The notes beneath the pieces are model-generated. The model was not told the DNA's origin, searched no databases, and worked only from the letters and a program-made list of their open reading frames with translations. Of a stretch of 64,000 nt of DNA, positions 35,402 to 57,069 are shown piece by piece. Each line of letters begins with the position of its first letter. The stretch's first letter is position 1. Source of the stretch: an uncultured Gemmatimonadaceae bacterium (GTDB lineage Bacteria > Gemmatimonadota > Gemmatimonadetes > Gemmatimonadales > Gemmatimonadaceae); contig CAWAGQ010000013.1 of NCBI GenBank assembly GCA_963781585.1, positions 416,001 through 480,000 of the forward strand. Direction: 5' to 3'. The position numbers and the translations under genes are program-made.

Positions 35402-36469
35402 TCAGGGAACCATCACCGCTCGCCTGAGCAGCCCGCCATGGTGTGCCAGGTCGAACACCTCGTTGATCCGCTCGAGCGGATGCCGCTCGACGTACGGCTT
35501 CACCCGGATACGGCCCGCCAGAATCCACTCGAGGATCTCCGCGTAGAGCAGGGGATCGGCACCCCAGTTCCCCCGCGCCTCGGCGTCGTAGGCCATCAGG
35601 TTCGACAGGCAGATCTCGATGCGGTCCATGGTATAGCCAACGACCGCCAGCGCGGCGCCGAATCCAATGAGTCCGAACGCGGTTTCCTGCCCGGCGCGCG
35701 TGCCAGACGTCTCGAAGATCTTCCACAGGAAGGGCGGGGCATCGAGGGAGTCGGCCGCGCTTCGCACCTGCTTCCGAATGTCCCTGGGGGCGACGCCGGC
35801 CACGTCGAGCGCGACGCCGGCGCCGGCGCCGCGGGCCTGCTCCAGCTTCCGCTTGTCCACGTCCAGCGCGATGACCTTGGCCCCTGAGGCGACCGCGATC
35901 TGCACACCATGCACGCCGATTCCTCCGGCGCCGATGAACACGGCGAGGTCGCCGGCGGAAAGGCCTGAGCGCTTGACCGCCTGGAACGGTGTCGAGACCG
36001 CATCGGAGACGACCGCCAGCTCCCACAGCTCGTGGGTGGCGAGCAACTCGTCAGGCACGGGACAGAGAAAGCGCGCCGGCACCACCACATGCGACTGGTA
36101 CCCTCCGTGGCGGTCATTCCCCGGCATCACCTGACTTCGGCAGATCGTGCGTCGTCCGGCCCGGCACAGCGCGCACTCGCCGCACGGCAGCACGGCCGGC
36201 ACGATGACGGCCCGTCCGACCAGCCGCGCATCGATGCCAGGACCCACGTTGTGGACGTATCCGCTGATCTCGTGTCCCAGCACCAGCGGCAGCGTGCCCC
36301 GCGTCTTGACGCCATGATGGAGAAACGACAGGTCGGTGTGGCAGACGCCGCACCCCGACACCTGGACCACCGCCTCGCCCGGCCCGGGCGCCTGCGGTTC
36401 GAGCGCACGGCGCTCGAACGGTGCCCCGGGTGCCGTCATCAGCCATGCGTCCCACGTGGCTTCGGCCAT
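35402..36469 (-). CDS. had: 6-hydroxycyclohex-1-ene-1-carbonyl-CoA dehydrogenase
   Basis: Zn-ADH motifs CGVCHTD, GHEISG, CGECALC...C; MPGNDRHGG, KIFETSG, LSNLMAYDA...GNWG; located in the bcr cluster. Confidence 0.88.
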   Translation of the reverse strand: MAEATWDAWLMTAPGAPFERRALEPQAPGPGEAVVQVSGCGVCHTDLSFLHHGVKTRGTLPLVLGHEISGYVHNVGPGIDARLVGRAVIVPAVLPCGECALCRAGRRTICRSQVMPGNDRHGGYQSHVVVPARFLCPVPDELLATHELWELAVVSDAVSTPFQAVKRSGLSAGDLAVFIGAGGIGVHGVQIAVASGAKVIALDVDKRKLEQARGAGAGVALDVAGVAPRDIRKQVRSAADSLDAPPFLWKIFETSGTRAGQETAFGLIGFGAALAVVGYTMDRIEICLSNLMAYDAEARGNWGADPLLYAEILEWILAGRIRVKPYVERHPLERINEVFDLAHHGGLLRRAVMVP

Positions 36470-36486: not shown

Positions 36487-38388
36487 TCAGGACTCCGTGG
36501 TGTTGATGACGACCGTGTCGTCGCCGAATATGAAGCTTCCGCACTCGTGGCATCGATCGAGGGTACGATCCGCCCCCGCAAAACAGCGCCGGTCGTCAGG
36601 CGCCAGCCGCATCACCTTCCGCAGGAAGCGGCAGTCGCAGTCACCGCTGGGCTCGTAGACCGCGTCCAGGTACGACCCGGCGTCTTCCAGCACATTGCGC
36701 ACCCGGACCTTGAGCGACGGCGTGAGCTCCTGCTCGTCGATCGAGAGCTCCTTGCTGATCACCGCGAAGGCCTGGATGCGCTCGTACTTCACGGGATGCT
36801 CCCGATTGAAGGCGAGGATCGTCGCCCGCAACGAGTCCCGCACGACGCGCTCGGCGCGCGCCCGGTCGTCGCCGAACTCTTCGCCGATCCGGAAGAAGTC
36901 CGGGAAGATCAGGGCCGCGAGAAAGTCCCTTCCGCCGCCGGTCACGATGACGTGGCGGATGTACGAGTTCATCCCGGCAAGCCGGTTCTCGATGCCCGTC
37001 GGCACCACCTTCTCCGCGTTCAGCATCTTGAACACGCGATCCTTCCGCGCGACCAGCTTGAGTCCGGCGCCTGCCAGCTCGCCCAGGTCGCCGGTGTGAA
37101 ACCATCCGTCGCCGGGCAGCGCCGCGGCGGTTGCCGCCGGATTCCGGAAGTAACCGCGCATGACGTTAGGCCCCTGCACCAGGATCTCGCCGTCTTCGGC
37201 AATCCGGACCCGTACCCCCGGGATGGGATACCCGACCATGCCCGGAACCGTACGGGGCTCGCCGAGATCCGTGAGCGTGCAGCACGGCGATGTCTCCGTG
37301 AGCCCCCAGCCCTCGAGTACCGGGATGCGCCGCCCGGCGAAGAAGCCGGAGACATTTGCCGGTAGCGGCGCGGCGGCCGTGAAAACGAAACGCAACCCGG
37401 GGTGGAAGATCCGCGCCTCCTGCTCGGGGTGCGCCTGCGCGTACGCAACCAGTTGCTGGTAGACCTTCGGAACGCTGAAGTAGATCGTGGGCCGCACCTC
37501 GAGCCACTGATCCAGCAGCCGCTCGAAGTTCTTGCCGAGCGACTGGTCGATGTGCAGTGCGGCGCCGCTGTACAGCGCACCGTATTTCTCGAAGATGCCG
37601 CCGAAACTGTGGTGCCAGGGGAGGTACGACAGGAACCGGTCGTCGGGAGTGACCGACCAGATGGCGGACAGGGCACGCTGCTGCGAGAGAATGTTGTCGT
37701 GGGTGAGCAGCACGCCCTTGAGCGGACCGCTGGTGCCTGACGTGTACATCATCAGGCTCGCCGTCGCCGGGTCGACGTTGGCGGCGTCGTCGAGGAAAGC
37801 GGTCAGGCGCTGCGGATCGTGTTCCGGCACTGCGAAGTCATGAAGGACGGCTCCGAACGTGGTGGGCTCCGAGCGCCTTCCGCGGTGCCGGCCCGCACCG
37901 GTACCTGACACCACGCCGTCGAACACGACGACCGCGCGCACGTGGTCGGGCACGCCGATACGAAGGAGATGATCGGGAGTCGCGACGATGAGCACCGTTG
38001 GTTCGGCATGCTCCACTAGTGCGCGCGCCTGCTCGGCCGGATAGCCGGTAAAGATGGGGACGTAGATCGCGCCAAGGCACATCGTCGCCATCTCCGCCAC
38101 CAGCATCTCGCCTCGATTTGGCGACAGCAGCACCACCCGGTCGCCCATCCGCACCCCGGACGAGGCGAGAAACGTGCCGAACGCGGCAACGTCCCGTGCG
38201 AACTGATGCCAGGTCGTCGCGCGGAACGCACCGTCGTGTCGTTCGGCGAACGCGGTTCGCCCGTCCAGTGCTGCCACGTTGCGCGCCAGCATCGCACCGA
38301 CGGATTCCGGTTCGCCCAGCGGGGCGAGGCGCGAGAAGATCACGTCGCCCTCGCGCGCGGCGGCCCGGGAGGAGCCTCCGTCAGTCAT
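36487..38388 (-). CDS. AMP-dependent acyl-CoA synthetase (long-chain type) with Cys-rich C-terminal tail
   Basis: YTSGTSGPLKG, EGWGLTETSP, FHTGD, ELTPSLKVR. Confidence 0.85.
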   Translation of the reverse strand: MTDGGSSRAAAREGDVIFSRLAPLGEPESVGAMLARNVAALDGRTAFAERHDGAFRATTWHQFARDVAAFGTFLASSGVRMGDRVVLLSPNRGEMLVAEMATMCLGAIYVPIFTGYPAEQARALVEHAEPTVLIVATPDHLLRIGVPDHVRAVVVFDGVVSGTGAGRHRGRRSEPTTFGAVLHDFAVPEHDPQRLTAFLDDAANVDPATASLMMYTSGTSGPLKGVLLTHDNILSQQRALSAIWSVTPDDRFLSYLPWHHSFGGIFEKYGALYSGAALHIDQSLGKNFERLLDQWLEVRPTIYFSVPKVYQQLVAYAQAHPEQEARIFHPGLRFVFTAAAPLPANVSGFFAGRRIPVLEGWGLTETSPCCTLTDLGEPRTVPGMVGYPIPGVRVRIAEDGEILVQGPNVMRGYFRNPAATAAALPGDGWFHTGDLGELAGAGLKLVARKDRVFKMLNAEKVVPTGIENRLAGMNSYIRHVIVTGGGRDFLAALIFPDFFRIGEEFGDDRARAERVVRDSLRATILAFNREHPVKYERIQAFAVISKELSIDEQELTPSLKVRVRNVLEDAGSYLDAVYEPSGDCDCRFLRKVMRLAPDDRRCFAGADRTLDRCHECGSFIFGDDTVVINTTES

Positions 38389-39223
38389 CGCCATCGTCCT
38401 TGCCATGGCGCGCGAGGGCAGCCTCACGAGTCGCGCCATCCGGGCCCACCGATACCGCGCCCTCGCGCGCGGCCAGTGCCGCGCCGAACGCGCCCATCTC
38501 CTGGGGATGTGGCGGGACGACGACTTCGCAGCGAAGCTCAGACGACAGCAGCGCGACCATGGTCGGATGAAACGCCACCACGCCGCCGGTGGCGACGACC
38601 TGCCCGTGAAAGACATCCATGGCTATCACCCGCTTCACCAGCGAGCGGTAGGCGGCCATTGCCAGGTCGGCCGGCCGGTTCCCGCTGCGAATGAGCGCCA
38701 GCAACTCGGTGCCGGCGAATACGGTGCAGAAGCTCGACAGCTCGAGCGCGTTGGAGGCCTGCTTCGCGAGAGCGTCCATCTCCTCCACGCGGATTCCGAG
38801 TCGAAGCGCGATCTCGTCGAGAAAGCTTCCGGTGCCGGCGGCACACTTGCGGTTCATGCGGTGCGACACGCGTTGCCCGGCGGCGTCGAACCGGATCACC
38901 TTGGCGTCCTGTCCGCCGATATCGATGACCGTCGCCGGACCGGGGATATAGAACGCAGCGCCGCGGCCGTGGCAGTCCAGCTCGGTGCGCGAGCCGTGGG
39001 CGAATGTCACCGCCTGACGCCCGAATCCCGTCGCCCAGATCGCGCGCACCTGGCCGGCCTCACACCCCGCGTCGGCCAGCGCGTTGGCGTAGACCCGCTC
39101 GGCGGCCGCGGCCAGATCTGCACCCGAGCGCACCACCGACATCCCGAGCACCCGCGCGCCGGCGTCGATGATGACCGCCTTCGTGTTCCACGAGCCGCTG
39201 TCGATGCCGGCGTAGAGCGTCAT
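38381..39223 (-). CDS. HgdC/BcrAD-family activator ATPase
   Basis: GIDSGSWNTK, ATGFGR, IDIGGQDAK, KCAAGTGSFL, SFCTVFA. Confidence 0.9.
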   Translation of the reverse strand: MTLYAGIDSGSWNTKAVIIDAGARVLGMSVVRSGADLAAAAERVYANALADAGCEAGQVRAIWATGFGRQAVTFAHGSRTELDCHGRGAAFYIPGPATVIDIGGQDAKVIRFDAAGQRVSHRMNRKCAAGTGSFLDEIALRLGIRVEEMDALAKQASNALELSSFCTVFAGTELLALIRSGNRPADLAMAAYRSLVKRVIAMDVFHGQVVATGGVVAFHPTMVALLSSELRCEVVVPPHPQEMGAFGAALAAREGAVSVGPDGATREAALARHGKDDGDD

Positions 39224-40512
39224 CGTCCTCCCGCCTGACGACTGGCCGAGCGCGCGTCCGCCAGCTGCTCGACGAATCCTTCGATGTTGGTGCGCGCCTG
39301 CTCGTCCGAGAAGCAGCGCAGGTCGTTCACGTCGCCGTCGACCACCAGCGCCGGAATCTGCAGACGTTCGGACAGCCGGCGCGGCATGCCGTAGCGTGTG
39401 TTCGTGTTGTTGGGGCAGGTGCGGCAGTCATGGAAGACAAGTCCGTCCACGCCGTAGTCCTCGATCATCCGTTCGATGTATCGCTCCTTTGCCGCCTCGG
39501 AGCGCACGATGAACAGCTCGAGCGATGCGCGCGCCATCGAGCGAATCGGGTCGGCCGCGTCGAGGGCGGAGAAGATCCAGCTGTTGCAGTAGGTGGAGGA
39601 GACCACCGCCGCGCGAAATTCGCCGAACAACGTCGACAGCGCGCGCAGTCGGCCCCAGATGGGCATCCCGTCCCAGTACAGGCGGAACGATTCTCCGGCG
39701 ACCGCGGCGATGCCGTCGTGGGCACGCTCCTCGAGTTCGCGCCTGAGGACCCGATAGTACGCACAGGCCTCCGGTGCGCCGCGCAGCACCACCGCCGGTC
39801 CCATGTGCACGGTGCCGTCGAAAAACGTCAGCGGCGCGGGCTGGTGCGCGGCAGTCCGCAGACACGCCTCCCAGAGATCCGAGCACTCGCGTGAACAGGA
39901 GACGGCGGACGCGAGGGACGCGTCATCGAGCCGTCTTCCGGCGACGGACTCGAGCGTCGGCACGAGCTGCTCCAGCTGTCGCGCGATCGCGTCGGTGTCG
40001 CCCTCCGACACCTCGTCGATACTCCGCGGCGAGTGGACGCCGACGACCGGGACGCTCCACTCTCTTCCGTACCACCCGAACCAGTCGGACACGTCGCGGC
40101 ATTGATTCGTGCTGAAGACCAGCACGTCCGCGCGCGGCACGCGGTGCAGCCCGTAGGCCGCGAGCGGCGTCTCGCCGGCGAGATATGCCCCGATGTCGCT
40201 GGTGAGGTACGAGCAGATCTCCGGTGAATACCCCTGTGCGTGCGCCAGCGGCAGGTACCGGCCGGCGCTCCGCGCCGTGCCCAGCATGGCGGCGTGGTTC
40301 TCGGGGAAGAAGACGCGGAAGCCAAGTGCGCGCAGCAGCTCGGCGGGTCCGACACTCGTGCACCACGCTACCGGCGACAGGTTGCGCTCGCTCTCGGCGA
40401 ACGAACGGTAGTACGCGCCCATCGTGTCGCGCAGGGCGCTTGTGCTGCGGATCTCCCTCCCGTTCGGGCCTGCCGCCCCCACGCCATCACCTCGTGCCCG
40501 GGTATCGCTCAT
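39220..40512 (-). CDS. 2-hydroxyacyl-CoA dehydratase / BcrB-family [4Fe-4S] subunit
   Basis: FPENHAA, EICSY, NQCRD, HDCRTC, DGDVND. ATG overlaps the upstream TGA. Confidence 0.88.
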   Translation of the reverse strand: MSDTRARGDGVGAAGPNGREIRSTSALRDTMGAYYRSFAESERNLSPVAWCTSVGPAELLRALGFRVFFPENHAAMLGTARSAGRYLPLAHAQGYSPEICSYLTSDIGAYLAGETPLAAYGLHRVPRADVLVFSTNQCRDVSDWFGWYGREWSVPVVGVHSPRSIDEVSEGDTDAIARQLEQLVPTLESVAGRRLDDASLASAVSCSRECSDLWEACLRTAAHQPAPLTFFDGTVHMGPAVVLRGAPEACAYYRVLRRELEERAHDGIAAVAGESFRLYWDGMPIWGRLRALSTLFGEFRAAVVSSTYCNSWIFSALDAADPIRSMARASLELFIVRSEAAKERYIERMIEDYGVDGLVFHDCRTCPNNTNTRYGMPRRLSERLQIPALVVDGDVNDLRCFSDEQARTNIEGFVEQLADARSASRQAGGR

Positions 40513-41336
40513 TGTACCGTTCCCGCGGCGACAGGGTGTTCGACGGTCTGCGGCAGTGGTCGCGCGGCCATTATCGCGGCGCCCAGGGCTCCTGTGAAGA
40601 TCGGTTCCGGCACTGCCTTGACGGTCATGCCGGTGAGCGACTCCAGCGCGCGGAGCACGCCAGGGAAGTACTCGGCCACGCCGCCGCACACCACGATGGG
40701 ATCCTGGAACCCGCCGATCTCGAGGACCCGCTCCGCGATCGAGTGCATGCAGCCGAACGCCACCTCCTCGCGGGTCGCGCCGTCGCGGAGCCGCTCGAGC
40801 ACGTCGGAGGCGGAGAACACCGAACAGTAGCTGCTCACCTGGGCGGGTCGCTCAGCGGCCGCGGCCAGCTCCTGAAGCCGGAGGGCGCTCACGTCCAGGT
40901 GCCGCGCGGTGAACATGAGGAAACTCCCCACGCCAAGCGCACAGCGGCGAACGCCCCGGGCCTCCAGCTGGTGTCCATCCGCGCTCACCTGGATCACGCG
41001 CGGGTCGCGCCCTCCGATGTTCACCAGCGTCATGGGTTCGCGCAGATGGTGGAATGCTCCCAGGGCGTGGCACGCCGTCTCCGATGCGGTGAGGGTTGCG
41101 TGCGGCACGCAGTTCATGGCGAACCCGGTGGCCCCGACGCCGACGAGGTCGTCCTCGCGCCGCTGCGCGTCGTCGAGCGCGGCCATCAGCACTTCGTAGA
41201 TGCAGGCCTGGAAGTAGCCGCGCGTGGGCAGCACCGCCCGCCCGAGCACACGCCCGTCCTCACTGGCCACCAGCGCCTTCACGCATTCGGTCCCCGCGTC
41301 CACGCCCGCGGCGATCCTCGGTTCAGCCGGTTGCAT
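40509..41336 (-). CDS. Divergent HgdC/BcrAD-family activator ATPase
   Basis: GVDAGTECVK, VNIGGRD, RCALGVGSFL, SYCSVFS, CGGVA. Confidence 0.85.
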   Translation of the reverse strand: MQPAEPRIAAGVDAGTECVKALVASEDGRVLGRAVLPTRGYFQACIYEVLMAALDDAQRREDDLVGVGATGFAMNCVPHATLTASETACHALGAFHHLREPMTLVNIGGRDPRVIQVSADGHQLEARGVRRCALGVGSFLMFTARHLDVSALRLQELAAAAERPAQVSSYCSVFSASDVLERLRDGATREEVAFGCMHSIAERVLEIGGFQDPIVVCGGVAEYFPGVLRALESLTGMTVKAVPEPIFTGALGAAIMAARPLPQTVEHPVAAGTVQ

Positions 41337-43644
41337 AACCCGTATCTCCCGCCAGCGCCCGTTCCGACGCGCCGGCGTGTTGCGTGCGTTGTTCGACGAA
41401 ATCCGACAGCAGCGCCTGCACGCGTTCGAGCGAGAACAGGCGCGGGTCGTGGGAATCGGCTTCGATCACCAGCGCCGGGATCCCCGTGAGGCGTTGGGCG
41501 CGGACGGCGAGGCCGTACCGCACGTGGCTGGCTTCGGCGGTGGTGCGGCAGTCGTGATAGACTGCCGCGTCGACGCCGAAGCGTTCGAACTCTCGCGCGA
41601 GGTAGGCCGTCTTGTACTGCTCCGAGCGGTTGCCGAACACGCCGGTGTATGCCTCCGCCATGCTCGCGATCGGGTCGTGCGGACCGAGGCCCTTCAGCGC
41701 AAACACACTGCAGAATGTGGAGGCGACGACGGCGGTTCCCGTCCCGGCGAACAGTCCCGACAGGGCGCGCAGCGCACCCCAGATAGGCGGTCCGTCCCAG
41801 TAGACGCGATGAAATTCGCTGGGGACGGCCGCAACACCCTGAGCGACGCGCTGTTCGATTTCGGCCTTGAGCTCGCGGTAGTAGGCGACGGCCTCGGGCG
41901 TGCCGCGCAGCAGGAGCATCGGCGCGAGGTGGGTCACGGCGTCGAAGAAGGTCAGCGGTGCGGGGGTCGCCTGCCCCAGCTCGAGAATCTCGTTCCACAG
42001 CGCCGACGCCTGGGCGCTCCACTCCACGATCTCGGCCAGCCGGTCGGAGTCGAGCGGTCGTCCACTGACTCTGCGGAGTTGAATCGACAGGCGCGTCCAC
42101 TGGTCGATTGCGGCGTCGAGGTCGATCCGCTCGAGGTCGTGGAGCGCGGTCGGTGGATGCAGTCCGACGACCGGCACGCCATAGTGAGCGCCGTAATACT
42201 CGAACCAGCGACGCAGCTCGTGTCCGGTGTTGGTGCTGTACACCGCGACGTCGGGGCGGGGCGGTCCCTTGATGCCGTGGGCGGTCACGAGCGGGCTGCT
42301 CCCCTCCAGCAACGCGCCGACGTCGGCGCGCATGGCGGCGCTGGCGAACTGCGAGAACCCCTCGGCCGTGGCCCGGGCGATGAGCGGCGCCGCCTGACGA
42401 GTGGCACCGATCAGGGCGGCGTGGTTCTCCGGAAAGTACGGCAGCATGTCGAGGGCCCGAATGATCTCCACCGGGCCGAGCCCCGAGCAGGCCGCCACTT
42501 TCCGGTCGGGGTCATCCGACGCGGCCTCGACATCGAGATAGTACGCGTGGATCAGCTCCTTCAGGCGGCGGGTGGATTCGAGCCGCGGTCCGACGAACGG
42601 CAGACCGGCGTCGGCCCCTCTCGCTGTCGGCCGGGACGGCGCCCTCGGCCGGGCACGGTCGCCGCCATGCGCGGCGCCCGCGTCGAGCCCCAATCGTCGC
42701 GCGAGCTCCTGCTTGTTGAGAAACTTCTGGCGCTCACGGGAGTGGATGAAGTGGACGATCGCCGCGTTATGCGGCGCCGTCAGCCCCAGCCGGCGCGCCT
42801 CGGCCACGATCGCGCCGTTGAGCGCGTCCACTTCCGTGCGCGTGCCGCGGGACAGGTCCTGCCACATCGACGGCCGGTTCTTCGCCAGCGCTTTCAGCGA
42901 TCCGATGATCGGACGGAACGGATCCTCCTCGTCGACGATCGGGACGCCTCGCGCCCGCATCACGGCGATGATCTCCATGGCGAGATCGCGCATGAACGCG
43001 AGCAGCTCGTCGTCGCCGAGGATTTCGCGGCACGTCAGCCCGGTGAGCGCCGAGGTCGGGTTCACCACCGCGTTGTGCAGGAGCTTCTGCCAGACGGCGT
43101 GATCGACGTTGTCGACCACGGTCGTCTCGAGCCCGGCCCGCCGGAACATCGCGCCGATGGCCTCGATCTCGGGCGTGACGGTGCCGGCCATGGGCGCGAT
43201 CTGGACCGGCTTGATCCCGGCGCGGTAGTGCAGGCGGCTCGGACCGGCGTGCTGGATGCTGTGGTACGTGATGCCGCACAACACATGGTCCGGGGCCACG
43301 TGGCGCGCGATGGCCTCCACGTTGCCGATGCCGTTCTGCATCGAGAGGAACCAGGTGCCCGGATGAACGACCCCCATCACCGCCTGCACCGCGTCCTCGG
43401 TCTGATAGGTCTTGGTCGCGATGAAGACCAGGTCGAACGGCGCCGCACCCTCGACGGTGGTCACCGCCCGCACCGGATAGCAGCTCTCCTCCTCGCCCAC
43501 CCGGGTGATCGACAGACCGGATTCGTTCAGGAGCTGCACGCGGGCCTTGTTCACCTCGAGGAGCGTGACGTCCTCGCCATCGCGCGTCAGCAGAGCTCCC
43601 ACCAGCCCGCCCAGGGCGCCGGCACCCACGATCACGATTCGCAT
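41323..43644 (-). CDS. Fusion of ketopantoate-reductase-like (PanE/ApbA) domain and 2-hydroxyacyl-CoA dehydratase-like domain
   Basis: N-terminal GAGALG, ATKTYQT, MQNGIG, WQKLLHNAVVNP, SMWQD, RTEVDALNG; C-terminal FPENHAA, VYWDGPPIW, YHDCRT. One uninterrupted ORF. Confidence 0.88.
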   Translation of the reverse strand: MRIVIVGAGALGGLVGALLTRDGEDVTLLEVNKARVQLLNESGLSITRVGEEESCYPVRAVTTVEGAAPFDLVFIATKTYQTEDAVQAVMGVVHPGTWFLSMQNGIGNVEAIARHVAPDHVLCGITYHSIQHAGPSRLHYRAGIKPVQIAPMAGTVTPEIEAIGAMFRRAGLETTVVDNVDHAVWQKLLHNAVVNPTSALTGLTCREILGDDELLAFMRDLAMEIIAVMRARGVPIVDEEDPFRPIIGSLKALAKNRPSMWQDLSRGTRTEVDALNGAIVAEARRLGLTAPHNAAIVHFIHSRERQKFLNKQELARRLGLDAGAAHGGDRARPRAPSRPTARGADAGLPFVGPRLESTRRLKELIHAYYLDVEAASDDPDRKVAACSGLGPVEIIRALDMLPYFPENHAALIGATRQAAPLIARATAEGFSQFASAAMRADVGALLEGSSPLVTAHGIKGPPRPDVAVYSTNTGHELRRWFEYYGAHYGVPVVGLHPPTALHDLERIDLDAAIDQWTRLSIQLRRVSGRPLDSDRLAEIVEWSAQASALWNEILELGQATPAPLTFFDAVTHLAPMLLLRGTPEAVAYYRELKAEIEQRVAQGVAAVPSEFHRVYWDGPPIWGALRALSGLFAGTGTAVVASTFCSVFALKGLGPHDPIASMAEAYTGVFGNRSEQYKTAYLAREFERFGVDAAVYHDCRTTAEASHVRYGLAVRAQRLTGIPALVIEADSHDPRLFSLERVQALLSDFVEQRTQHAGASERALAGDTGYATG

Positions 43645-43687: not shown

Positions 43688-44470
43688 TCACCGGTTCTTC
43701 CACGCCGGGCGGCGCTTTTCGGTGAACGACGCGATGCCCTCGCGCACGTCCTCGGTCGCCATCAGTTCATCCAGGAAAACGCGTTCGGCCTCGCGCCGCG
43801 CTACCTCGAACGGCCGACCCTGCAGCCGTCGCGCGAGCCGGACGTTCATGCGCATGACGAGCGGGCTCGCGCGCCGCAGGTCGTCAAGCAGGGCGTCGAG
43901 GACGGCGGTCAGGTCCCCGGACGGCGCGACGCGCGAGACGAGCCCCATTGCCTGCATCTCGGCTGCCGAATACGTCCGGCCCGTGCACGTGACCTCGAGT
44001 GCGCGCGCGAGGCCGATTCGGGACGCCAGCCAGGTGACGCCGACCGGCGCGAAGAACCCCAGCCGGATCTCCGGCTGACCAAACGTGGCGCGGTCGCTGG
44101 CCACCAGCACGTCGGCCATGGCGGCCAGCTCGAATCCAGCGCCTAACGCCGCACCATCCACGACCATCACGAGAGGCAGCTCGCTCGCCCCCAGGGTGCC
44201 GAAGAGCGCGCTGAACGCGGCGATCATGCCCGGCGCCTGCCCGGGAGCGTGCTCGCCCACGTCGGCGCCGGCCGAAAAGGCGCGGGCCTCCGAGCTGAGC
44301 GTGATCGCCTTGAGCGTGCGATCGGCCAGGGCGCGCTCGAGGGCGTCGGTCAGGGCCCCCATCATCGCCGCGGTGAGGATGTTGAGCGGTGGTGAGTCCA
44401 GCGTCAGGTGCGCGACGTCCTCACGGACCTCGTACCGTACCAGACTTGCGCGGTCGGTCATCGTCGTCAC
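43688..44470 (-). CDS. dch: Cyclohexa-1,5-dienecarbonyl-CoA hydratase (crotonase fold)
   Basis: PPLNIL, FSAGADVGEH, GQPEIRLGFFAP; located in the bcr cluster. Confidence 0.8.
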   Translation of the reverse strand: MTTMTDRASLVRYEVREDVAHLTLDSPPLNILTAAMMGALTDALERALADRTLKAITLSSEARAFSAGADVGEHAPGQAPGMIAAFSALFGTLGASELPLVMVVDGAALGAGFELAAMADVLVASDRATFGQPEIRLGFFAPVGVTWLASRIGLARALEVTCTGRTYSAAEMQAMGLVSRVAPSGDLTAVLDALLDDLRRASPLVMRMNVRLARRLQGRPFEVARREAERVFLDELMATEDVREGIASFTEKRRPAWKNR

Positions 44471-44477
44471 GGTCTCC

Positions 44478-45227
44478 TCACATGCACTGGCCGCCGTCCA
44501 CCCGGATCACTTCACCCGTCACGTGACGGGCGCGATCCGAGCAGAGGAAGACCACCATCTGCGCGATATCCTCGGGGTCAGCGATGCGGCCGAGTGGGGA
44601 CTCGCGGATTGCGCCGTCGAGCACGCCGCGCGGCAGCGCGGCCGCCATGTCGGTGTGGACCATGCCCGGCGCCACGCAGTTCACGTTGACGCCGAACGCT
44701 CCCAGTTCGCGGGCGAGCGAGCGGGTGAACGCCATCACTCCCCCTTTCGACGCCGCGTAGTTCGACTGCCCGAACTTTCCGCGCAGCCCGTTGATCGACG
44801 AGATGGTCACGATCTTGCCACGCTGCTGGCCACGAAAGGGCGGTACGACCGCGCGGCAGTAGGTGAAGCATCCCTTCAGGTTCACGTCGAGTACGTCGTC
44901 CCACGCTTCCTCGGTCATTTTCCAGACCACGGCATCGCGCGTGATGCCGGCGTTGCAGACGAGGATGTCGAGACGCCCCAGCTCGCGGATGGTCGCGGCC
45001 ACGCTGTTCTCCGCCGCTTCCATGCTCGTGACGTCGGCGCCGAGCGCCACCGCCCGGCGGCCCGAGTGGCGCAGCTCGCCCGCAATCGACTCGGCGCCGG
45101 CGAGAGCGCCCAGGTCCACGAGCGCCACATCGCAGCCTTCGCGCGCGAATTCGCGCGCGATCGCTGCGCCGATGCCGCGTCCGGCGCCCGTGACCAGCGC
45201 CACCTGTCCCGCCATCCCGAGATCCAT
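44478..45227 (-). CDS. Short-chain dehydrogenase/reductase (FabG/BzdZ-like)
   Basis: TGAGRGIG, NAGITRD, YAASK, NCVAPG. Confidence 0.88.
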   Translation of the reverse strand: MDLGMAGQVALVTGAGRGIGAAIAREFAREGCDVALVDLGALAGAESIAGELRHSGRRAVALGADVTSMEAAENSVAATIRELGRLDILVCNAGITRDAVVWKMTEEAWDDVLDVNLKGCFTYCRAVVPPFRGQQRGKIVTISSINGLRGKFGQSNYAASKGGVMAFTRSLARELGAFGVNVNCVAPGMVHTDMAAALPRGVLDGAIRESPLGRIADPEDIAQMVVFLCSDRARHVTGEVIRVDGGQCM

Positions 45228-45235
45228 CCGATGTC

Positions 45236-46210
45236 CTAGCCTGTCCGGCCCGCGCCATTCAGCGCCGCGCCGCAACTCCCGCAGAACGTGAAGTCGGCGG
45301 GAAGCCCCGTCGCGCCGCAGGACTCGCACGTCGTGGCGTATGGTCCCCACAGGAATTCGCTGCTGGCCCCCGACGCCGCCCGCTGGCGCAGCCCCGCGAA
45401 GTCGACCTTCCGCTTCTCGACGAACGCGCGCATCCCCTCGTACGGCTCCAGCGTGGTGAAGTGCGTGGAGAGCCAGTCACGCGCGTGCCCGATGGTGGCG
45501 TTCCAGGCGGACTCCTTCCAGTAGTTCACCTGCTGCTTGGTGTAGCGCGTGCACTCGGGGAACTTCTCCAGCGCCTGCTGCGCCAGCCCCTGCACCTCGT
45601 CATCGAGGCGGACCCGCGGCACCACGCGGTTCACCAGTCCCCACTCCAGGGCCTGACGGGCGGGGATCCGCGGGTTCAGGAAGAGCATCTCGCGCGCGCG
45701 CCGGTCGCCCACGTGAATCGACAGCCACTGCGTCGCTCCACCCGCGGCCACGCTGCCGACGCTCGATCCGACCTGCCCCAGGTACGTGTCGTCCGCCATC
45801 ACCGCCAGGTCGCACGCCAGCTGCGATTCGTTCCCGCCGCCCACCGCGATGCCGTTGAGCCGGGCGATGGTGATCTTCCCGCTGCGGAGGATGCTCTCGA
45901 TGTAGCGGCTGAACAGGCCCATGTACTTCCAGTAGTCGCGGGGGCGCTTGGTGTAGACGGCGGCGTACTCCTTCACGTCGCCGCCGGTGCAGAACGCCTT
46001 GTCGCCCGCGCCGGTGTACACGATGACCCCCACCGCGTCGTCGTTCGAGGCATCCTCGAAGGCGACGATCAGCTCCCGCAGCGTGTCGGTGGTGTACGCG
46101 TTGTACGACTCGGGGCGGTTGATGGTGATGCGCGCCACCATGTCGCGCTTTTCATAGAGAATGTCCTTGAACCCGAAGCAGGTCGCGTCCTTCGAAGGGA
46201 AATACTCCAT
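45236..46210 (-). CDS. oah: 6-oxocyclohex-1-ene-1-carbonyl-CoA hydrolase-like crotonase
   Basis: YNAYTT, GAGDKAFCTGGDVKEYA, KFPECTRYTK; C-terminal CESC...CGSC; cluster context. Confidence 0.8.
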   Translation of the reverse strand: MEYFPSKDATCFGFKDILYEKRDMVARITINRPESYNAYTTDTLRELIVAFEDASNDDAVGVIVYTGAGDKAFCTGGDVKEYAAVYTKRPRDYWKYMGLFSRYIESILRSGKITIARLNGIAVGGGNESQLACDLAVMADDTYLGQVGSSVGSVAAGGATQWLSIHVGDRRAREMLFLNPRIPARQALEWGLVNRVVPRVRLDDEVQGLAQQALEKFPECTRYTKQQVNYWKESAWNATIGHARDWLSTHFTTLEPYEGMRAFVEKRKVDFAGLRQRAASGASSEFLWGPYATTCESCGATGLPADFTFCGSCGAALNGAGRTG

Positions 46211-46285
46211 CCGTCGATACCTCAGTCGCAGTTGGTCACCGATGAGCGGTATGGTCGATCGTCTGATTGTTCGTCACGCTCCGCG

Positions 46286-47491
46286 TCATTCCACCTTCAC
46301 CACGATTGCCGCTGCGCTGTCGCCGGCCGCGCATCCGGTGAACAGTCCATAGCCGCCGCCCAGGAGCGTGAGGTCCTCGACCAATTCCATGATGGCACGG
46401 AGCCCCGTGGGTCCCTGCGGGTGTCCCCACACCAGCGAGCTGCCGTGGCGATTCATCATCTCCGGGTCGAGGCCGAGCTCCCGCGACAGGTACACATCGT
46501 TGACCGCGAACGGATTGTGCGTCGTCACACTCGTCAGGTCGCCGGCGCTGATTCCGGCACGCTCCAGCGCCTGACGCGCGGCCGGCGCCACCGCCATCGG
46601 CATGAATCCCTTCCTGACCCGTGCCTGTCCGTACGACAGCAGCCGGATCCCCACCGCGCCGTCGCGCGAGAGCGCCTGTGCGCGGTCCCGGCTCGCGGCG
46701 AGGATCATGGCCGCGCTGCCGTCGGCCGGGTGCGTCTGCGTGCCGAAGGTCACCGTGCCCCCGTCGATGACGGGGCGCAGTCCCTGCAGCCCCTGCGCCG
46801 TGGTCGGAAAGACGCCCTCATCGCCGGTGACGGTCGCCAGAACCTTCCTGCCGCGCGCGTCCTTCACCTCGACCGGCCGCACCAGGAACCGCGACAGGAA
46901 CGCGCCGTCGTCCGCGGTGGCGAGTTGGTACTGGCGGAAGCGCAGCAACGCCATTTCCTCCTGTGCCGCGCGGCTGATGCCTGCCTCACGCGCCACGTTC
47001 TCCGCCGTTTCCACCATCGAGTTCCTGGCGTATGGATCGTGGCCGAAGCTGTCGAGCACCCAGTTCTCGGCATCGCCCGTGCCGCCTGGGCCGGCGGGAT
47101 TCGGATAGTAGACGTGTGGTCCATTGCTCGTCCGATCGGCCGACGCAGCGAGGTAGACGGTGGCGCTCCCCGATTCCAGCTCCTGGGCGCCCTGCACCAG
47201 GGTCCGGACCGATGTCGCGCACGCCTGGTTGATGGTCGGCCCGGTCACGTGGCACAGTCCCGCGAGACCGGCAAACCACGGCGCCCCGTAGAACGACCCC
47301 TTGCTCGGCACGGTCGTGCCGAGACACATGCCGTCGAACGCGGAGACGTCGACGCCGCGCTCGGACAGCGCGCGTTTCGTGACATCGGCGGCGAAGGGAA
47401 TCGGCGCCAGCGGCGCGAAGCTCCCCTGCCATGCGCAGAACGGCGTCGACCAGTAGCCGCCGTACGGAATCCAGGTGTTCGTGAATTGCAT
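46286..47491 (-). CDS. Thiolase
   Basis: QACATS, THNPFA, GHPQGPTG, CAAGD. Confidence 0.88.
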   Translation of the reverse strand: MQFTNTWIPYGGYWSTPFCAWQGSFAPLAPIPFAADVTKRALSERGVDVSAFDGMCLGTTVPSKGSFYGAPWFAGLAGLCHVTGPTINQACATSVRTLVQGAQELESGSATVYLAASADRTSNGPHVYYPNPAGPGGTGDAENWVLDSFGHDPYARNSMVETAENVAREAGISRAAQEEMALLRFRQYQLATADDGAFLSRFLVRPVEVKDARGRKVLATVTGDEGVFPTTAQGLQGLRPVIDGGTVTFGTQTHPADGSAAMILAASRDRAQALSRDGAVGIRLLSYGQARVRKGFMPMAVAPAARQALERAGISAGDLTSVTTHNPFAVNDVYLSRELGLDPEMMNRHGSSLVWGHPQGPTGLRAIMELVEDLTLLGGGYGLFTGCAAGDSAAAIVVKVE

Positions 47492-47549
47492 CGTCGTCCT
47501 CACACAGGGCGGGGGAGGCCGGCGGCCGACCCCGCGTCTTGGCTCGTGC

Positions 47550-48206
47550 TCATTGCCCGCGCCCGTCGTGGCGCAGCCCGTTGAGCACGAGGTCCAGCAT
47601 TTCCTCGCCGACCTGTTCCACCGGTCCATGGCGGGCCGGATCGTACCACATGAAGATCCAGTTCAGCATACCGAAGATGAACAGCGTGGCGTGGCGGCTC
47701 TCCCGCGATGCCCCGGCAGCGTTAGGCGGACCGTCCTTCACCTCCGCGACCACGTCCGTCATCAGCCGGTAGTAGCGCCGGCGCAGCGACTGGATGGTGT
47801 GGTAGGGCTCGCCCGTCAGCGATTCCAGCTCGTACGTGCACGCCTTGAGCTCGTTGCGATGGTGCGAGAAGAACCCGAGGTGTCCGATCAGCAGCCGTCG
47901 GAACCGCTCCTCCGGCGTGCCGGGCTGCTCGGCGACTTCCTCCTGCGCCTGCAGCAGTGAGCCGAAGGTCCGGTACTGGAGCTGATAGAGCAGGTCCTCC
48001 TTGCTGGCGAAATAATGGTACAGGCCCGCCAGGCTCACCCCCACCGCCTGGCTCACGTCGCGCATCGAGGTCGCCTCGAATCCCTTCTCCGCGATCAGCG
48101 CCGCCGCCCGGGCCAGCAGGTGATCGACCTTCTGCCGGGTCGTCGCCCGTGGGCGCTGGTGGCGTGCCGTGGCGGCGGGCATGGCGGGATCACGCGGGAT
48201 CGTCAT
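47550..48206 (-). CDS. TetR-family regulator (PaaR/KstR2-like)
   Basis: KGFEATSMRDVSQAVGVSLAGLYHYFASKEDL; FGMLNWIFMWY. Confidence 0.9.
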   Translation of the reverse strand: MTIPRDPAMPAATARHQRPRATTRQKVDHLLARAAALIAEKGFEATSMRDVSQAVGVSLAGLYHYFASKEDLLYQLQYRTFGSLLQAQEEVAEQPGTPEERFRRLLIGHLGFFSHHRNELKACTYELESLTGEPYHTIQSLRRRYYRLMTDVVAEVKDGPPNAAGASRESRHATLFIFGMLNWIFMWYDPARHGPVEQVGEEMLDLVLNGLRHDGRGQ

Positions 48207-51061
48207 GATGGCACCTCGTGCGCTAGCGCCAGCGGCGGCTGCTGGGCCGGTGATGGGCGGTCCTTGAGTCCCCGCAGAATCTTCTCCGGGGTGATCGGCA
48301 ACTCGGTCACGCGCACGCCGCACGCGTCGTACACGGCGTTGGCAATCGCGCCCAGCACCGGCAACAGTGAACCCTCCCCGATCTCCTTGGCACCGAACGG
48401 ACCGTGCGGCTCGTAGCTGTCCACCGCTGCGGTGCGAATGTCCGGAGTGTCGCAGATCGTCGGGATCAGGTAGTCATGCAGATTCGGGTTGGCGATCTCC
48501 CCGTTGGCCCCCACCACCGTGTCCTCGAACAGCGTTTCGCCGAGACCCATCACGATCGCACCCTCGACCTGTCCGTGGAACGTCACCGGGTTGATGACCG
48601 TGCCCGCGTCGCTGAAGTCGGTCACGCGGTCGACGGTCACGAAGCCGGTCTCGAGATCGACGGTCACCTCCGCCACCACCGTCGAGAAGGAGTACGCCGG
48701 CGAGGTCCCGACCGCGCTGCCCTTGAAATCCCCGCCCAGGCTCTGTGGCGGGCGGTACCATCCGGTGCCGACCACCGGTCCGGCGCGGCTGAACGCAAGC
48801 CGTGCCGCCGCGGCCCACTCGATGCCCATGGCCGGGTAGTCGCGCACGAAAATCCGCCCGGCGCGTGCGTCCAGTGCCCCGGCGTCGCACCCCAGTTCAC
48901 GCGCCGCCACCGCGAGCACTTGCTGCTTCACGCTCTGTGCGGCCATCCGGACCGCGTTGCCGCCCATCAACGTGAGGCGGCTCGAGTAGGCGCCCAGGTC
49001 GAGCGTGCTCGACACCGTGTCGCACTCCACCAGCCAGATCCACTCGTAAGGCACCCCCAGTTCCTCGGCGGCGATCTGCACCATCACCGTGTCCGACCCC
49101 TGGCCGATCTCGGCCGCCGCGATGTGAAGCGAGACGCCGGTGCCGTCTTCGTGCACCCGGATCATGGCGTTGGAGTGCGGAAAATCCGAGCGATAGATCG
49201 GATAGCCGGCACCGGAGACAAATCCTCCGCATCCCACGCCGATCCCCCTGCCACGCGCGAGCCGCCCTCGCTTCGTCCGCCACTCGGTTTCCTGGCGCGC
49301 GCGCCGCAGCGTCTGGCCGAACTCGCACGACGAAATGTCGAGCGCGTTGCAGGTGCGCGTGTTCGGTTCCATCGCGTTCTTCAGCCGCATCTCGATCGGA
49401 TCGATGCCGAGATCCTCGGCGATCATGTCGAGCAGCGACTCGAACGCGAAGCGTGGCTGCGGCGCCCCGTGGCCGCGGAACGCACCCGACGCAGGGAGAT
49501 TGGTGTAGACGCGCAGGCCGTCGTAGCGATAATGCGGAATCTTGTACAGGGTCGGGACCATCGAGCCGGCGTAGTACGCGGTGATCACGCCGAACGACGT
49601 GTACGCGCCGCCGTCGAGCACCACGCGCTGCTGTACCGCGGTGATGGTGCCATCCCGTTTCACGCCGATCCGCAGGTCGATGGTCTGCTTGTGACGCCCG
49701 CGGAAGTGCCGGAACATCTCCTCGCGCGAGTATTCCATCAGTACCGGCCGACCCGTCATCCTCGCCAGAATCGCCGCGCAGAAGTCCAGCGGCGTCGCCT
49801 CCGCCTTGGCGCCGAATCCACCGCCCACCGCCGGCCGGATCACGCGGATGTTCCCCATCGGGATGCCCAGCGTGCGGGACAACGACCGGTGCAGGTAGTG
49901 GGGTGTCTGCGTCGATGCCCAGATCGTGAGGCGTCCCGACGGATCCCATTGTGCCAGCGCCGCATGCGGCTCCATCGGCGTCTGGTACGGGCGATTGCCG
50001 ATGAATCGCTGCTCGCGGATGTGCTCGGCGGCAGCGAACCCTCGCTCGATGTCGCCGAAGTGCCACTCGACGCGCGTGTTGATGTTACCGGCATACCGGG
50101 GATTCTCGGGATGGATGAGCGGAGCGCCGGGCGCCATGGCCGATTCGGCGTCGAAGACGGCTGGAAGCGGCTCGTACTCCACCTCGATCAGCCGCAGCGC
50201 CCGCTCAGCCGTCTCCTCGTCGACCGCGGCCACCGCCGCCACCTCGTCGCCCACGTAACGCACCCGCTCCCTGGCGAGAATCTGCTCGTCCTCGCGCGCG
50301 GGGCTCACACCGTACCACGTATCGGGCACGTCGGCGCCGGTAATCACCGCGAGCACACCGGGTAGCGCACGCGCCTTCGAGACATCGATCCGCTTGAGAA
50401 GTCCGTGCGGAATCGGACTGCCAAGAATCTTCCCGTGAATCATCCCTGGCAGCCGGAGGTCAGCCGTGTACTTCGCGCGGCCGGTAACCTTGTCCGGCGC
50501 GTCGTACCGCGTGACTCCGTGACCGACGATCGAGTGGTCGCGTTCCTGATCGCGCTCTCCGCGCCCGTGCGGCCGCGCATCCAGCGGAACGTCGCGATAC
50601 TCCTTCCACCCCTCCACCGCGCTGAGCACGCGCGGATACGTCGCACAGCGACAGAGGTTGCCACTGAGCGCCTCGCGAATCTCCCCAGTCGAGGGATCCG
50701 GATTGCTGTCGACGAGGGCTTTCGCCGCCATCAGCATGCCCGGTGTGCAATAGCCGCACTGCAGCGCCCCGTGCTTCACGAACGCCTTCTGCAGCGGATG
50801 CAACTCGCCGCCCCGTGCCATCCCTTCAATCGTCGTGATCGACCTTCCCGACGCCGCGGCAGCCGGTACCAGGCACGAGGTGACGGGCGCACCATCCATC
50901 AGCACGGTACAGGCACCGCAATCGCCGGTGCCGCACGCCTTCTTGGTCCCCGTGAGGTCGAGCAAGTCGCGCAACACCGCCAGCAGGGTGGTGTCCGGCT
51001 TCACGGCAAGCGCGTGCTCCTCGCCGTTCACCGTTAGGCGGACGAGCATCTCGTCGCTCAT
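48203..51061 (-). CDS. Xanthine-oxidase-family molybdoprotein, HcrA-like, with fused N-terminal 2x[2Fe-2S] (HcrC-like) domain
   Basis: CGTGDCGAC, QCGYC, NLCRC, then KVTGRAKY, GGGFG, FRGHG, IGQGS, YSSR, GAKEIGE. RGHG and GGFVSG resemble 4-hydroxybenzoyl-CoA reductase alpha. Confidence 0.8.
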   Translation of the reverse strand: MSDEMLVRLTVNGEEHALAVKPDTTLLAVLRDLLDLTGTKKACGTGDCGACTVLMDGAPVTSCLVPAAAASGRSITTIEGMARGGELHPLQKAFVKHGALQCGYCTPGMLMAAKALVDSNPDPSTGEIREALSGNLCRCATYPRVLSAVEGWKEYRDVPLDARPHGRGERDQERDHSIVGHGVTRYDAPDKVTGRAKYTADLRLPGMIHGKILGSPIPHGLLKRIDVSKARALPGVLAVITGADVPDTWYGVSPAREDEQILARERVRYVGDEVAAVAAVDEETAERALRLIEVEYEPLPAVFDAESAMAPGAPLIHPENPRYAGNINTRVEWHFGDIERGFAAAEHIREQRFIGNRPYQTPMEPHAALAQWDPSGRLTIWASTQTPHYLHRSLSRTLGIPMGNIRVIRPAVGGGFGAKAEATPLDFCAAILARMTGRPVLMEYSREEMFRHFRGRHKQTIDLRIGVKRDGTITAVQQRVVLDGGAYTSFGVITAYYAGSMVPTLYKIPHYRYDGLRVYTNLPASGAFRGHGAPQPRFAFESLLDMIAEDLGIDPIEMRLKNAMEPNTRTCNALDISSCEFGQTLRRARQETEWRTKRGRLARGRGIGVGCGGFVSGAGYPIYRSDFPHSNAMIRVHEDGTGVSLHIAAAEIGQGSDTVMVQIAAEELGVPYEWIWLVECDTVSSTLDLGAYSSRLTLMGGNAVRMAAQSVKQQVLAVAARELGCDAGALDARAGRIFVRDYPAMGIEWAAAARLAFSRAGPVVGTGWYRPPQSLGGDFKGSAVGTSPAYSFSTVVAEVTVDLETGFVTVDRVTDFSDAGTVINPVTFHGQVEGAIVMGLGETLFEDTVVGANGEIANPNLHDYLIPTICDTPDIRTAAVDSYEPHGPFGAKEIGEGSLLPVLGAIANAVYDACGVRVTELPITPEKILRGLKDRPSPAQQPPLALAHEVPS

Positions 51062-56954: not shown

Positions 56955-57069
56955 CGTCGCCTCCAGGCTGGCTGGGGCCGGCCGGCGTCCCGATGCGTCA
57001 GGAGCCAGCCAGAAGAACTCGAGATGGTGCGATCTTCGGTATTTGTACGGCTTCCCGTGAGTCAAAACC

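Follow-up and report, generated by a model that had tools for sequence, protein, structure and literature searches.

We analysed a stretch of 64,000 nucleotides (hereafter the window; G+C about 68%) from an uncultured Gemmatimonadaceae bacterium (contig CAWAGQ010000013.1, positions 416,001 to 480,000 of the forward strand, assembly GCA_963781585.1), whose closest relatives are metagenome-assembled genomes (MAGs) of Gemmatimonadota. A long catabolic cluster occupies its minus strand from about 57065 down to 35402, and within it, between a dch-like hydratase gene and had, lies a module of five genes (43644-36487, minus strand). In the order of transcription, these encode a PanE-type reductase fused to an HGD-D domain (41323-43644; 773 aa; Pfam ApbA 124, ApbA_C 114 and HGD-D 157 bits), an ATPase that we call ATPase1 (40509-41336; 275 aa; BcrAD_BadFG 119.5 bits), a second HGD-D protein, HGDD2 (39220-40512; 430 aa; HGD-D 194 bits), ATPase2 (38381-39223; 280 aa; BcrAD_BadFG 151 bits and TIGR00241 204 bits) and an AMP-forming acyl-CoA ligase (36487 to about 38394; about 630 aa; AMP-binding 242 bits, followed by AMP-binding_C_3). 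All four junctions overlap, by 14 nt between the fusion and ATPase1, by 4 nt (ATGA) on either side of HGDD2 and by 8 or 14 nt between ATPase2 and the ligase, so the five genes are translationally coupled, and a GGGAGG-type ribosome-binding site precedes the start of the fusion. A scan for promoters and terminators gave nothing over the shuffled expectation, no such signal interrupting the five-gene unit, and an Rfam scan of 34000-58000 returned no match. Our tentative proposal, developed below, is that this module may be an entry route into the benzoyl-CoA pathway by dehydration of a 2-hydroxyacyl-CoA.

The N-terminal part of the fusion (residues 1-308; 42721-43644) is a PanE/ApbA-type NAD(P)H 2-oxoacid reductase domain, which exceeds the cut-off of the NCBIfam model TIGR00745 (apbA_panE, 254.7 vs 141 bits) in addition to matching both Pfam families. 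Its catalytic columns N104, K187, N191, S/T259, D263 and E271 were kept in all 68 sequences compared, and we take them to include the counterparts of Asn98, Lys176 and Glu256 of the E. coli enzyme; with the scores over cut-off and the catalytic Lys, Asn and Glu retained, the domain belongs to the PanE/ApbA 2-oxoacid reductases. An acidic residue at position 30, at the end of strand beta2, in 64 of the 68 domains suggests that NADH would be the cofactor. Foldseek comparison placed the fold close to the ketopantoate reductases of the PDB (template modelling score, TM, 0.89-0.91) and to D-mandelate dehydrogenases (0.79-0.86).

A poorly conserved linker follows (about residues 309-356; 42577-42720), with a predicted local distance difference test score (pLDDT) below 50 at residues 313-335 and a conserved 'GGMPxGRVPL' motif, the Met of which is the start of some unfused homologues (P0400, P0408, P0414). 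Beyond it, the HGD-D domain (41323-42576) has the alpha-type fold (TM 0.90 to HadB, 0.82 to BzdO and 0.80 to MbdO). We predict it to be a cluster-less partner subunit, because S, G and T stand at its three [4Fe-4S] ligand columns and no Cys column is found at these positions among 68 orthologues. In the AlphaFold model (mean pLDDT 82) two domains were confidently predicted, with the disordered linker between them, and a predicted TM score of 0.56 suggests no fixed pose of one domain relative to the other. We also found a second type of fusion, the 728-aa protein P0242 (NCBI GAB4289179.1) of a Myxococcota MAG, which combines a divergent PanE domain with an HGDD2-like domain that bears the Cys. 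PanE is thus linked to this HGD-D clade in two configurations, to the cluster-less and to the Cys-bearing subunit.

HGDD2 shares 43% identity with the fused HGD-D domain, which like HGDD2 itself is of the alpha, substrate-binding type. In HGDD2, C100, C138 and C366 align with the HadB ligands and with Cys95, Cys128 and Cys380 of BzdO, so that the ligand columns would allow the three-Cys [4Fe-4S] site with one open iron that characterises the substrate-binding subunit of dehydratases; HGDD2 is therefore presumed to be the cluster-bearing, catalytic subunit. Five Cys (C51, C100, C138, C309 and C366) are kept in 43 of 43 sequences, and given the extra invariant C51 and C309, a second or enlarged cluster is possible. 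Further Cys were frequent, C217 and C400 being present in 91% of the sequences and C363 in 77%.

Comparisons with known proteins showed that HGDD2 leans to the dehydratases. Searched against the PDB, its profile scored 227 bits with HadB, 149 with MbdO, 114 with BzdO and 41 with the double-cubane cluster protein DCCP, and of its 94 nearest full-length representatives scanned, with matches counted at E <= 1e-60, 66 matched the HadB model alone, 1 matched BcrB and 27 matched none. Orthologues of HGDD2 are also encoded by Deferrisoma camini (59% identity) and Geothermobacter hydrogeniphilus (57%). As we read our own alignment, its signature columns are E-N-H and V, the same as in HadB, where BcrB and MbdO have E-I-N and F/Y. 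All equivalog cut-offs lie far above its scores (HadB, 182 vs 750 bits; BcrB TIGR02260, 124 vs 487; BzdO TIGR03191, 74 vs 449), and these together with the HGD-D tree described below rule out membership in the BcrB, BzdO or HadB equivalogs.

Both ATPases belong to the BcrAD/BadFG (archerase) family, are 33% identical to each other and retain the two Cys of the bridging cluster. In ATPase1 of the window, N replaces D in the DIGGxD phosphate motif ('VNIGGRD'), a position at which the consensus of 68 orthologues is D. The earlier note had called ATPase1 a divergent activator; its cluster Cys are intact, and the D-to-N change is specific to the window. The clades of ATPase1 (support 100) and ATPase2 (98) are sisters, and a branch supported at 99 parts them from all benzoyl-CoA reductase (BCR) ATPases sampled (BcrA, BcrD and Bzd-like). 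Unlike the dehydratases, for which one activator gene is defining, the module has two ATPase genes, each forming its own conserved clade.

We also built a tree of 87 HGD-D proteins with Shimodaira-Hasegawa-like approximate likelihood ratio (SH-aLRT) supports; like the ATPase tree, it was built without HgdA, FldB, LcdA or dehydratase-activator references. One clade (SH-aLRT 99) gathered the fused domains and the orthologues of HGDD2 together with P0242 and some relatives that are not fused; the BcrB and HadB clades (100 each) are both separate from it. The module thus falls in a clade of its own and not inside an already characterised MBR/HAD clade, the placement that the earlier note had named as refuting its idea. 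Approximately unbiased (AU) tests rejected neither a grouping of the module with HadB (p 0.85) nor one with BcrB (p 0.79), and as the constrained trees were better than the quick free tree, the deep nodes of the HGD-D tree carry little weight. From these trees, we interpret both pairs, that of the HGD-D proteins and that of the ATPases, as lineage-internal paralogues. This paralogy within both pairs implies that the arrangement of two HGD-D subunits and two ATPases (2+2) would be convergent with that of class I BCR, and it looks as if it arose when an ancestral HGD-D and ATPase gene pair was duplicated in tandem.

The fusion is widely conserved. The architecture ApbA+ApbA_C+HGD-D was present in 120 of the 120 homologue clusters among the matches listed (61-74% identity, 705-785 aa). 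When a single genome of each species was scanned, a relative was encoded at 125 of the 141 pattern matches, and the 80 loci in which both domains were matched were kept; these belong to Gemmatimonadota (36), Myxococcota (8), Acidobacteriota (7), Krumholzibacteriota (5), Eiseniibacteriota (2) and Pseudomonadota (1), with 5 labelled Fibrobacterota and 16 unlabelled. The full-length fusion therefore occurs in at least seven phyla, at 52-74% identity. One could argue that it is an artefact of assembly or annotation, or a decaying pseudogene, considering that the same window holds a frameshifted bcrC and that the few unfused cluster-less homologues mentioned above begin at the linker Met. Against this, the same full-length fusion recurs throughout the listed clusters and the 80 loci, its PanE catalytic residues are invariant and both domains fold confidently, which leaves this explanation with hardly any probability at all; the narrower case of a lost stop codon was ruled out by the same recurrence in clusters and loci of several phyla. 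The homologues are not always separate and unlinked, as the earlier note had asked us to consider, and the fusion is genuine.

The surroundings of the fusion are also conserved. ATPase1 lies directly downstream in 69 of 69 loci and a dch-like enoyl-CoA hydratase (ECH) gene directly upstream in 63 of 67; hcrCA (43/48), a TetR gene (44/48) and a short-chain dehydrogenase/reductase (SDR) gene (43/48) are found upstream, and had within 9 kb downstream in 49 of 50. The gene after ATPase1 is HGDD2 in 39 of 64 loci, had in 22 and neither in 3. Where had stands directly behind ATPase1, the HGDD2-ATPase2 pair is located elsewhere and shares its operon with genes for an ADP-forming synthetase and a Na+/solute symporter (L017, L029, L046, L050, L058, L065 and L073), and in the first six of these loci it was recorded apart from fusion-ATPase1; by gene order, then, HGDD2 and ATPase2 appear to travel together. 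The four had orthologues scanned all exceed the Had equivalog cut-off (439-461 bits). In 23 loci outside Gemmatimonadaceae, an SCPx-type thiolase and a DUF35 gene precede the ECH gene, with the SDR gene beside them where mapped, a Bbs-like set that would suit a beta-aryl substrate. A true Oah (TIGR03200, 527-586 vs 464 bits) is encoded in six loci (L040, L046, L049, L055, L058 and L066); the neighbourhood in L049 comprises Hcr, Had, FadB, a thiolase, an acyl-CoA dehydrogenase, Oah and a better Dch candidate (257 bits).

Canonical BCR sets, of two types (Bcr-like and Bzd-like), share the locus with the module in 11 of the 24 loci with full flanks, and in the other 13 none lies within 10 kb. The window cluster is resembled by 34 of the 36 Gemmatimonadota loci, in which canonical bcr was seen wherever the upstream flank was long enough, and Bcr- or Bzd-type sets were also present in L020, L025, L039, L048, L055 and L064. 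The two Anaeromyxobacter(aceae) loci, L078 and L079, carry the module without dch, had, oah or hcr; in L079 a divergent iorAB (arylpyruvate-type oxidoreductase) adjoins the operon, and in L078 boxC is nearby. In Gemmatimonadota-type clusters we also noticed a gene for a hemerythrin-domain protein (189 aa; L015:18087-18656), which flanks had in either orientation in 22 loci and is not found in the window; such a protein might sense oxygen or protect oxygen-labile enzymes.

Three unrelated types of CoA ligase were found behind HGDD2-ATPase2. The window ligase has FadD11 as its best NCBIfam model (211 bits), and no benzoate-CoA ligase model was among the best 25 of its 91 matched NCBIfam models; its C-terminal tail (36487-36650, minus strand), outside the AMP-binding models, is Cys-rich (CDC...C...CHEC) and zinc-ribbon-like. 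In L078, L069 and L059 the pair is followed by PRK06187-like ligases, for which no benzoate-CoA ligase model appeared among the NCBIfam matches at E <= 1e-90. An ADP-forming acyl-CoA synthetase takes this place in 11 loci, with the Na+/solute symporter alongside in 8. Such a non-orthologous replacement of the ligase argues that the unit includes the activation of a free acid taken up by the cell.

In the window itself, the module is followed by had (35402-36469, minus strand), a Zn-dependent alcohol dehydrogenase-type gene identified by model as 6-hydroxycyclohex-1-ene-1-carbonyl-CoA dehydrogenase (TIGR03201, 427 vs an equivalog cut-off of 339 bits), and preceded by the dch-like gene (43688-44470, minus strand; ECH_1 168 bits), which scored 146 bits with TIGR03189 vs a cut-off of 292 and by this score is merely a generic enoyl-CoA hydratase. 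Thus, of the earlier description of five coupled genes between dch and had, the gene anatomy, the coupling and the identity of had held, while the name dch did not. The whole minus-strand cluster reads bcrC, bcrB, bcrA, bcrD, a small GNAT gene, a gene for an HcrB-like protein, fused HcrC+HcrA, TetR, thiolase, BadI/Oah-like crotonase, SDR, dch-like hydratase, the five-gene module and had; the genes from HcrB-like to SDR (44478-51951) were assigned by model matches. The bcrCBAD genes (52397 to about 57065) match equivalog models of NCBIfam, in agreement with the earlier statement that the module is additional to them.

Several of these neighbours showed features of their own. The bcrC gene (55787-57065, minus strand) is frameshifted, with the N-terminal 150 or so residues in the frame of open reading frame (ORF) 56319-57065 and the C-terminal part (TIGR02263 positions 151-380) in ORF 55787-56701, reflecting either an assembly error or a pseudogene. 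The Hcr-like enzyme (48203-51951, minus strand) has HcrC and HcrA fused in one protein of 994 aa (TIGR03194, 916 vs a cut-off of 994.55 bits). Its HcrB-like FAD subunit (297 aa) has only two Cys and matches TIGR03195 weakly, in two stretches; from its sequence, it seems to be without the [4Fe-4S] insertion that Thauera HcrB presumably carries. The 'oah' gene (45236-46210, minus strand) covers the whole BadI model (190 bits) and the Oah model in part (198 bits) and appears closer to BadI/MenB in architecture, so the ring-opening enzyme of Gemmatimonadota may be different from the true Oah of loci outside this phylum. The GNAT acetyltransferase gene (51933-52390, minus strand), which we take to be reminiscent of R. 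palustris badL, lies between bcrD and hcrB; it is not at this place in other Gemmatimonadaceae loci, and in L055 (20043-21086) it comes after oah. On the plus strand, 4 kb past had (26819-31474), we found genes for a GltD-like NAD(P)H/FeS flavoprotein and for the alpha and beta subunits of a 2-oxoacid:acceptor oxidoreductase, a system that may reduce ferredoxin for Bcr and Hcr; two such oxidoreductase sets immediately follow had in L062.

Considering these results, we tentatively favour, at somewhat less than an even chance, a reading in which the module converts a 2-oxoacid to the (R)-2-hydroxyacid, its CoA ester and the enoyl-CoA, probably from an arylpyruvate or aryllactate, and so feeds (4-hydroxy)benzoyl-CoA; the acid, taken up by the cell, would most likely be phenylpyruvate, 4-hydroxyphenylpyruvate or the corresponding aryl-lactate. 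Using NADH, the PanE domain would form the (R)-2-hydroxyacid from the 2-oxoacid, and the ligase would convert this product to its CoA thioester. The thioester would bind at the open iron of the three-Cys [4Fe-4S] cluster of HGDD2, partnered by the cluster-less HGD-D domain of the fusion, and an ATPase1/ATPase2 heterodimer holding a bridging [4Fe-4S] cluster would inject one ATP-energised electron. Elimination of the alpha-hydroxyl by ketyl-radical dehydration would give cinnamoyl- or p-coumaroyl-CoA, which the neighbouring hydratase, dehydrogenase and thiolase could shorten to benzoyl- or 4-hydroxybenzoyl-CoA, for Hcr and Bcr to take onward. The domain content, the conservation of ligands and of the fusion, the synteny and the paralogy are direct observations, and the catalytic steps, the substrate and the subunit contacts are inferred from them.

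What favours this route is, on the one hand, the intact PanE site, the two kinds of PanE/HGD-D fusion and the interchangeable ligases with an acid symporter, and on the other hand the HadB-like signature columns and fold and the co-occurrence of canonical BCRs of two types, which indicates that the module is not a BCR substitute. According to the part of a preprint that deals with the PanE family, it includes NADH-dependent D-2-hydroxyacid and D-mandelate dehydrogenases (bioRxiv 10.1101/2024.01.05.573888); D-(R)-2-hydroxyacids are the substrates of 2-hydroxyacyl-CoA dehydratases, which supports the route. Moreover, hcrCA, the hydratase, the Bbs-like set, iorAB in L079 and boxC in L078 make a context that fits production of (4-hydroxy)benzoyl-CoA. 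A conversion of phenylpyruvate through phenyllactyl-CoA and cinnamoyl-CoA to benzoyl-CoA is put forward as a hypothesis, with different genes, in passages of a 2026 paper on a sulfate reducer (PMC13416013).

Several observations nevertheless weigh against this proposal. With two HGD-D proteins and two ATPases that differ from each other, the module has the composition of class I BCR. Canonical dehydratases, as described in the passages that we cite (PMC8473912, PMC7317905), use a single, homodimeric activator and carry a [4Fe-4S] cluster in each of their two subunits, and the electron goes first to the cluster of the accessory subunit, a cluster that the accessory subunit here, judged by its ligand columns, would not carry. 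The tightest neighbours are ring-pathway genes (had over its cut-off, and true Oah in six loci), and in L049 the fusion stands among such genes with no Bbs-like set there. The 13 of 24 full-flank loci without a canonical BCR within 10 kb would fit a module that is itself the ring reductase, and the AU tests reject neither affinity. The E-N-H/V signature is our reading and not an established criterion. In addition, no aminotransferase was seen in the loci, and an arylpyruvate-type oxidoreductase was seen in only 1 of the 80.

These points lead to the other possibility raised by the earlier note, a class-I-like aryl-CoA reductase. In its explicit form, the module would be an independently arisen, ATP-dependent reductase in which HGDD2 reduces an aryl- or alicyclic acyl-CoA, whether benzoyl-CoA (in organisms without BcrCBAD), a substituted analogue or a dienoyl-CoA, with the ATPase heterodimer delivering stoichiometric ATP-driven electrons, the ligase and symporter supplying the aromatic acid, and the PanE domain acting on a keto tautomer or in an accessory role. 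Together with the 2+2 composition, the insertion between a hydratase and a cut-off-passing Had, the true Oah of six loci and the 13 loci without a BCR nearby, the BcrB affinity left standing by the AU test (p 0.79) agrees with it, and the Krumholzibacteriota-type loci would then be complete, with symporter, ligase, Hcr, reductase, Dch, Had, Oah, SDR and thiolase. On the contrary, a reductase has no natural role for an intact 2-oxoacid reductase domain fused in two configurations, its partner subunit would offer no FeS cluster for electron relay, and canonical Bcr- or Bzd-type sets co-occur in the same cluster in the Gemmatimonadota loci and the six others named above. HGDD2 also fails to reach the cut-offs of BcrB and BzdO and does not fall in the BcrB clade, the ligases are of types other than benzoate-CoA ligase and the Anaeromyxobacter modules lack dch, had and oah. 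We therefore consider the reductase doubtful, though a serious contender, and of the two alternatives in the earlier note the route from 2-oxoacid to enoyl-CoA is the better supported. Dehydratase chemistry could also serve an aliphatic substrate (2-oxoglutarate, 2-oxoadipate or 2-oxopimelate), the product of which (glutaconyl-, 2,3-dehydroadipyl- or 2,3-didehydropimelyl-CoA) would enter the lower benzoyl-CoA pathway. This shares the mechanistic evidence of the aromatic route, the neighbouring ECH, SDR and thiolase could be enzymes of a 3-hydroxypimelyl-CoA branch, and 2-oxoacid:ferredoxin oxidoreductase genes are near in the window (28608-31474) and in L062; but it leaves unexplained the very strong association with Hcr (43 of 48 loci), the iorAB neighbour in L079 and the SCPx-thiolase/DUF35 set, which typically goes with bulky beta-aryl or branched substrates, and we know of no 2-oxo-dicarboxylates that serve as growth substrates entering by such a route. 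We regard it as improbable. Rather unlikely, in our estimate, is also a class of single-cluster, ATP-driven radical enzymes that evolved the BCR-like 2+2 layout independently and catalyses net reduction instead of redox-neutral dehydration; this may be reductive removal of the alpha-hydroxyl from a 2-hydroxyacyl-CoA made by PanE, or dearomatisation of an aryl-CoA in phyla without known BCRs. What probability the dehydratase and reductase readings leave falls to something not yet imagined.

Returning to the proposed entry route, we compared the module with known systems. In full-text literature searches, with subscription journals outside their scope, we found no description of the module or of a fusion of PanE with a subunit of a radical enzyme, and, among the papers listed, none combining '2-dehydropantoate 2-reductase' with a dehydratase term, in accordance with the earlier note, which knew of no characterised system with this fusion; a search of the ESM Atlas gave generic 'HGD-D' clusters only. 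The module resembles HadBC/HadI, HgdAB/HgdC and FldBC/FldI in having an HGD-D subunit with a three-Cys [4Fe-4S] site and an ATPase of the BcrAD family that holds a bridging cluster; in sequence and fold, HadB is the best match. Systems with the FldH dehydrogenase and the FldA CoA-transferase follow the same logic from 2-oxoacid to (R)-2-hydroxyacid, CoA ester and enoyl-CoA. Unlike in these dehydratases, the accessory subunit is an alpha-type paralogue lacking a cluster of its own, two different ATPases replace the single homodimer, the dehydrogenase is of PanE type and forms one protein with the accessory subunit, a CoA ligase takes the place of the CoA-transferase, and HGDD2 stays under the HadB cut-off. 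The hosts also differ, being respiring soil and sediment phyla in one case and fermenters in the other.

With class I BCR (BcrCBAD, BzdNOPQ, MbdONQP) the module shares the make-up of its four gene products, a pair of HGD-D proteins and a pair of distinct ATPases, as well as a place in a benzoyl-CoA pathway cluster and three Cys ligands that align with BzdO. It differs in that both pairs are internal duplicates, that PanE and a ligase are attached, and that HGDD2 reaches none of the BCR equivalog cut-offs and branches apart from the BcrB clade. In BzdN there is an [8Fe-9S] cluster (PMC11971306), and as an electron-relay subunit of this kind the partner in the module, with neither [8Fe-9S] nor [4Fe-4S], does not qualify. 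The inferred ancestral state, in which a single HGD-D gene was simply paired with a single ATPase gene, resembles DCCP/DCCP-R (YjiM/YjiL). The spacing C138-X170-C309 of HGDD2 equals the CX166-170C step of the 7-Cys DCCP motif, CX19CX18-19CX29CX166-170CX32-34CX32C in the passage giving it (PMC7317905). The five invariant Cys of HGDD2 do not fit the other spacings, and its scores are low (NF040772, 47.7 vs a cut-off of 350 bits; 41 bits with DCCP of the PDB), so a double-cubane protein was ruled out. Lastly, L. lactis PanE and the D-mandelate dehydrogenases have the same fold and catalytic residues and an acidic beta2 end, but the D-2-hydroxyacid dehydrogenases of the PanE family stand alone at about 310 aa, whereas the PanE domain here is fused. 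By its sequence features, then, the module appears to share the cofactor logic of the multi-subunit families while failing at least one defining feature of each, and it may work like them without belonging to any.

Anaerobic degradation of aromatic compounds is poorly understood in the abundant, mostly uncultured soil phyla such as Gemmatimonadota and Acidobacteriota. If the entry route that we favour is true, these organisms would convert 2-oxoacids derived from Phe and Tyr, or aryl-lactates, to benzoyl-CoA by radical dehydration, a chemistry so far tied to strictly fermentative clostridia, followed by beta-oxidation, replacing the phenylacetate/phenylglyoxylate route of known denitrifiers. 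If instead the module were a reductase of the class I type, it would add a third lineage to the ATP-dependent reductases that act on rings or acyl-CoA, and net reduction by a single-cluster enzyme, if true, would mean an undescribed type of reaction and a new enzyme class widespread in Gemmatimonadota, Acidobacteriota, Myxococcota and Krumholzibacteriota. The module is also a natural experiment, an archerase-dependent enzyme in which the accessory subunit appears to have lost a cluster and gained a dehydrogenase and in which an ATPase heterodimer would have arisen independently of that of BCR, and as such it bears on how energised electrons are delivered and stored in this superfamily.

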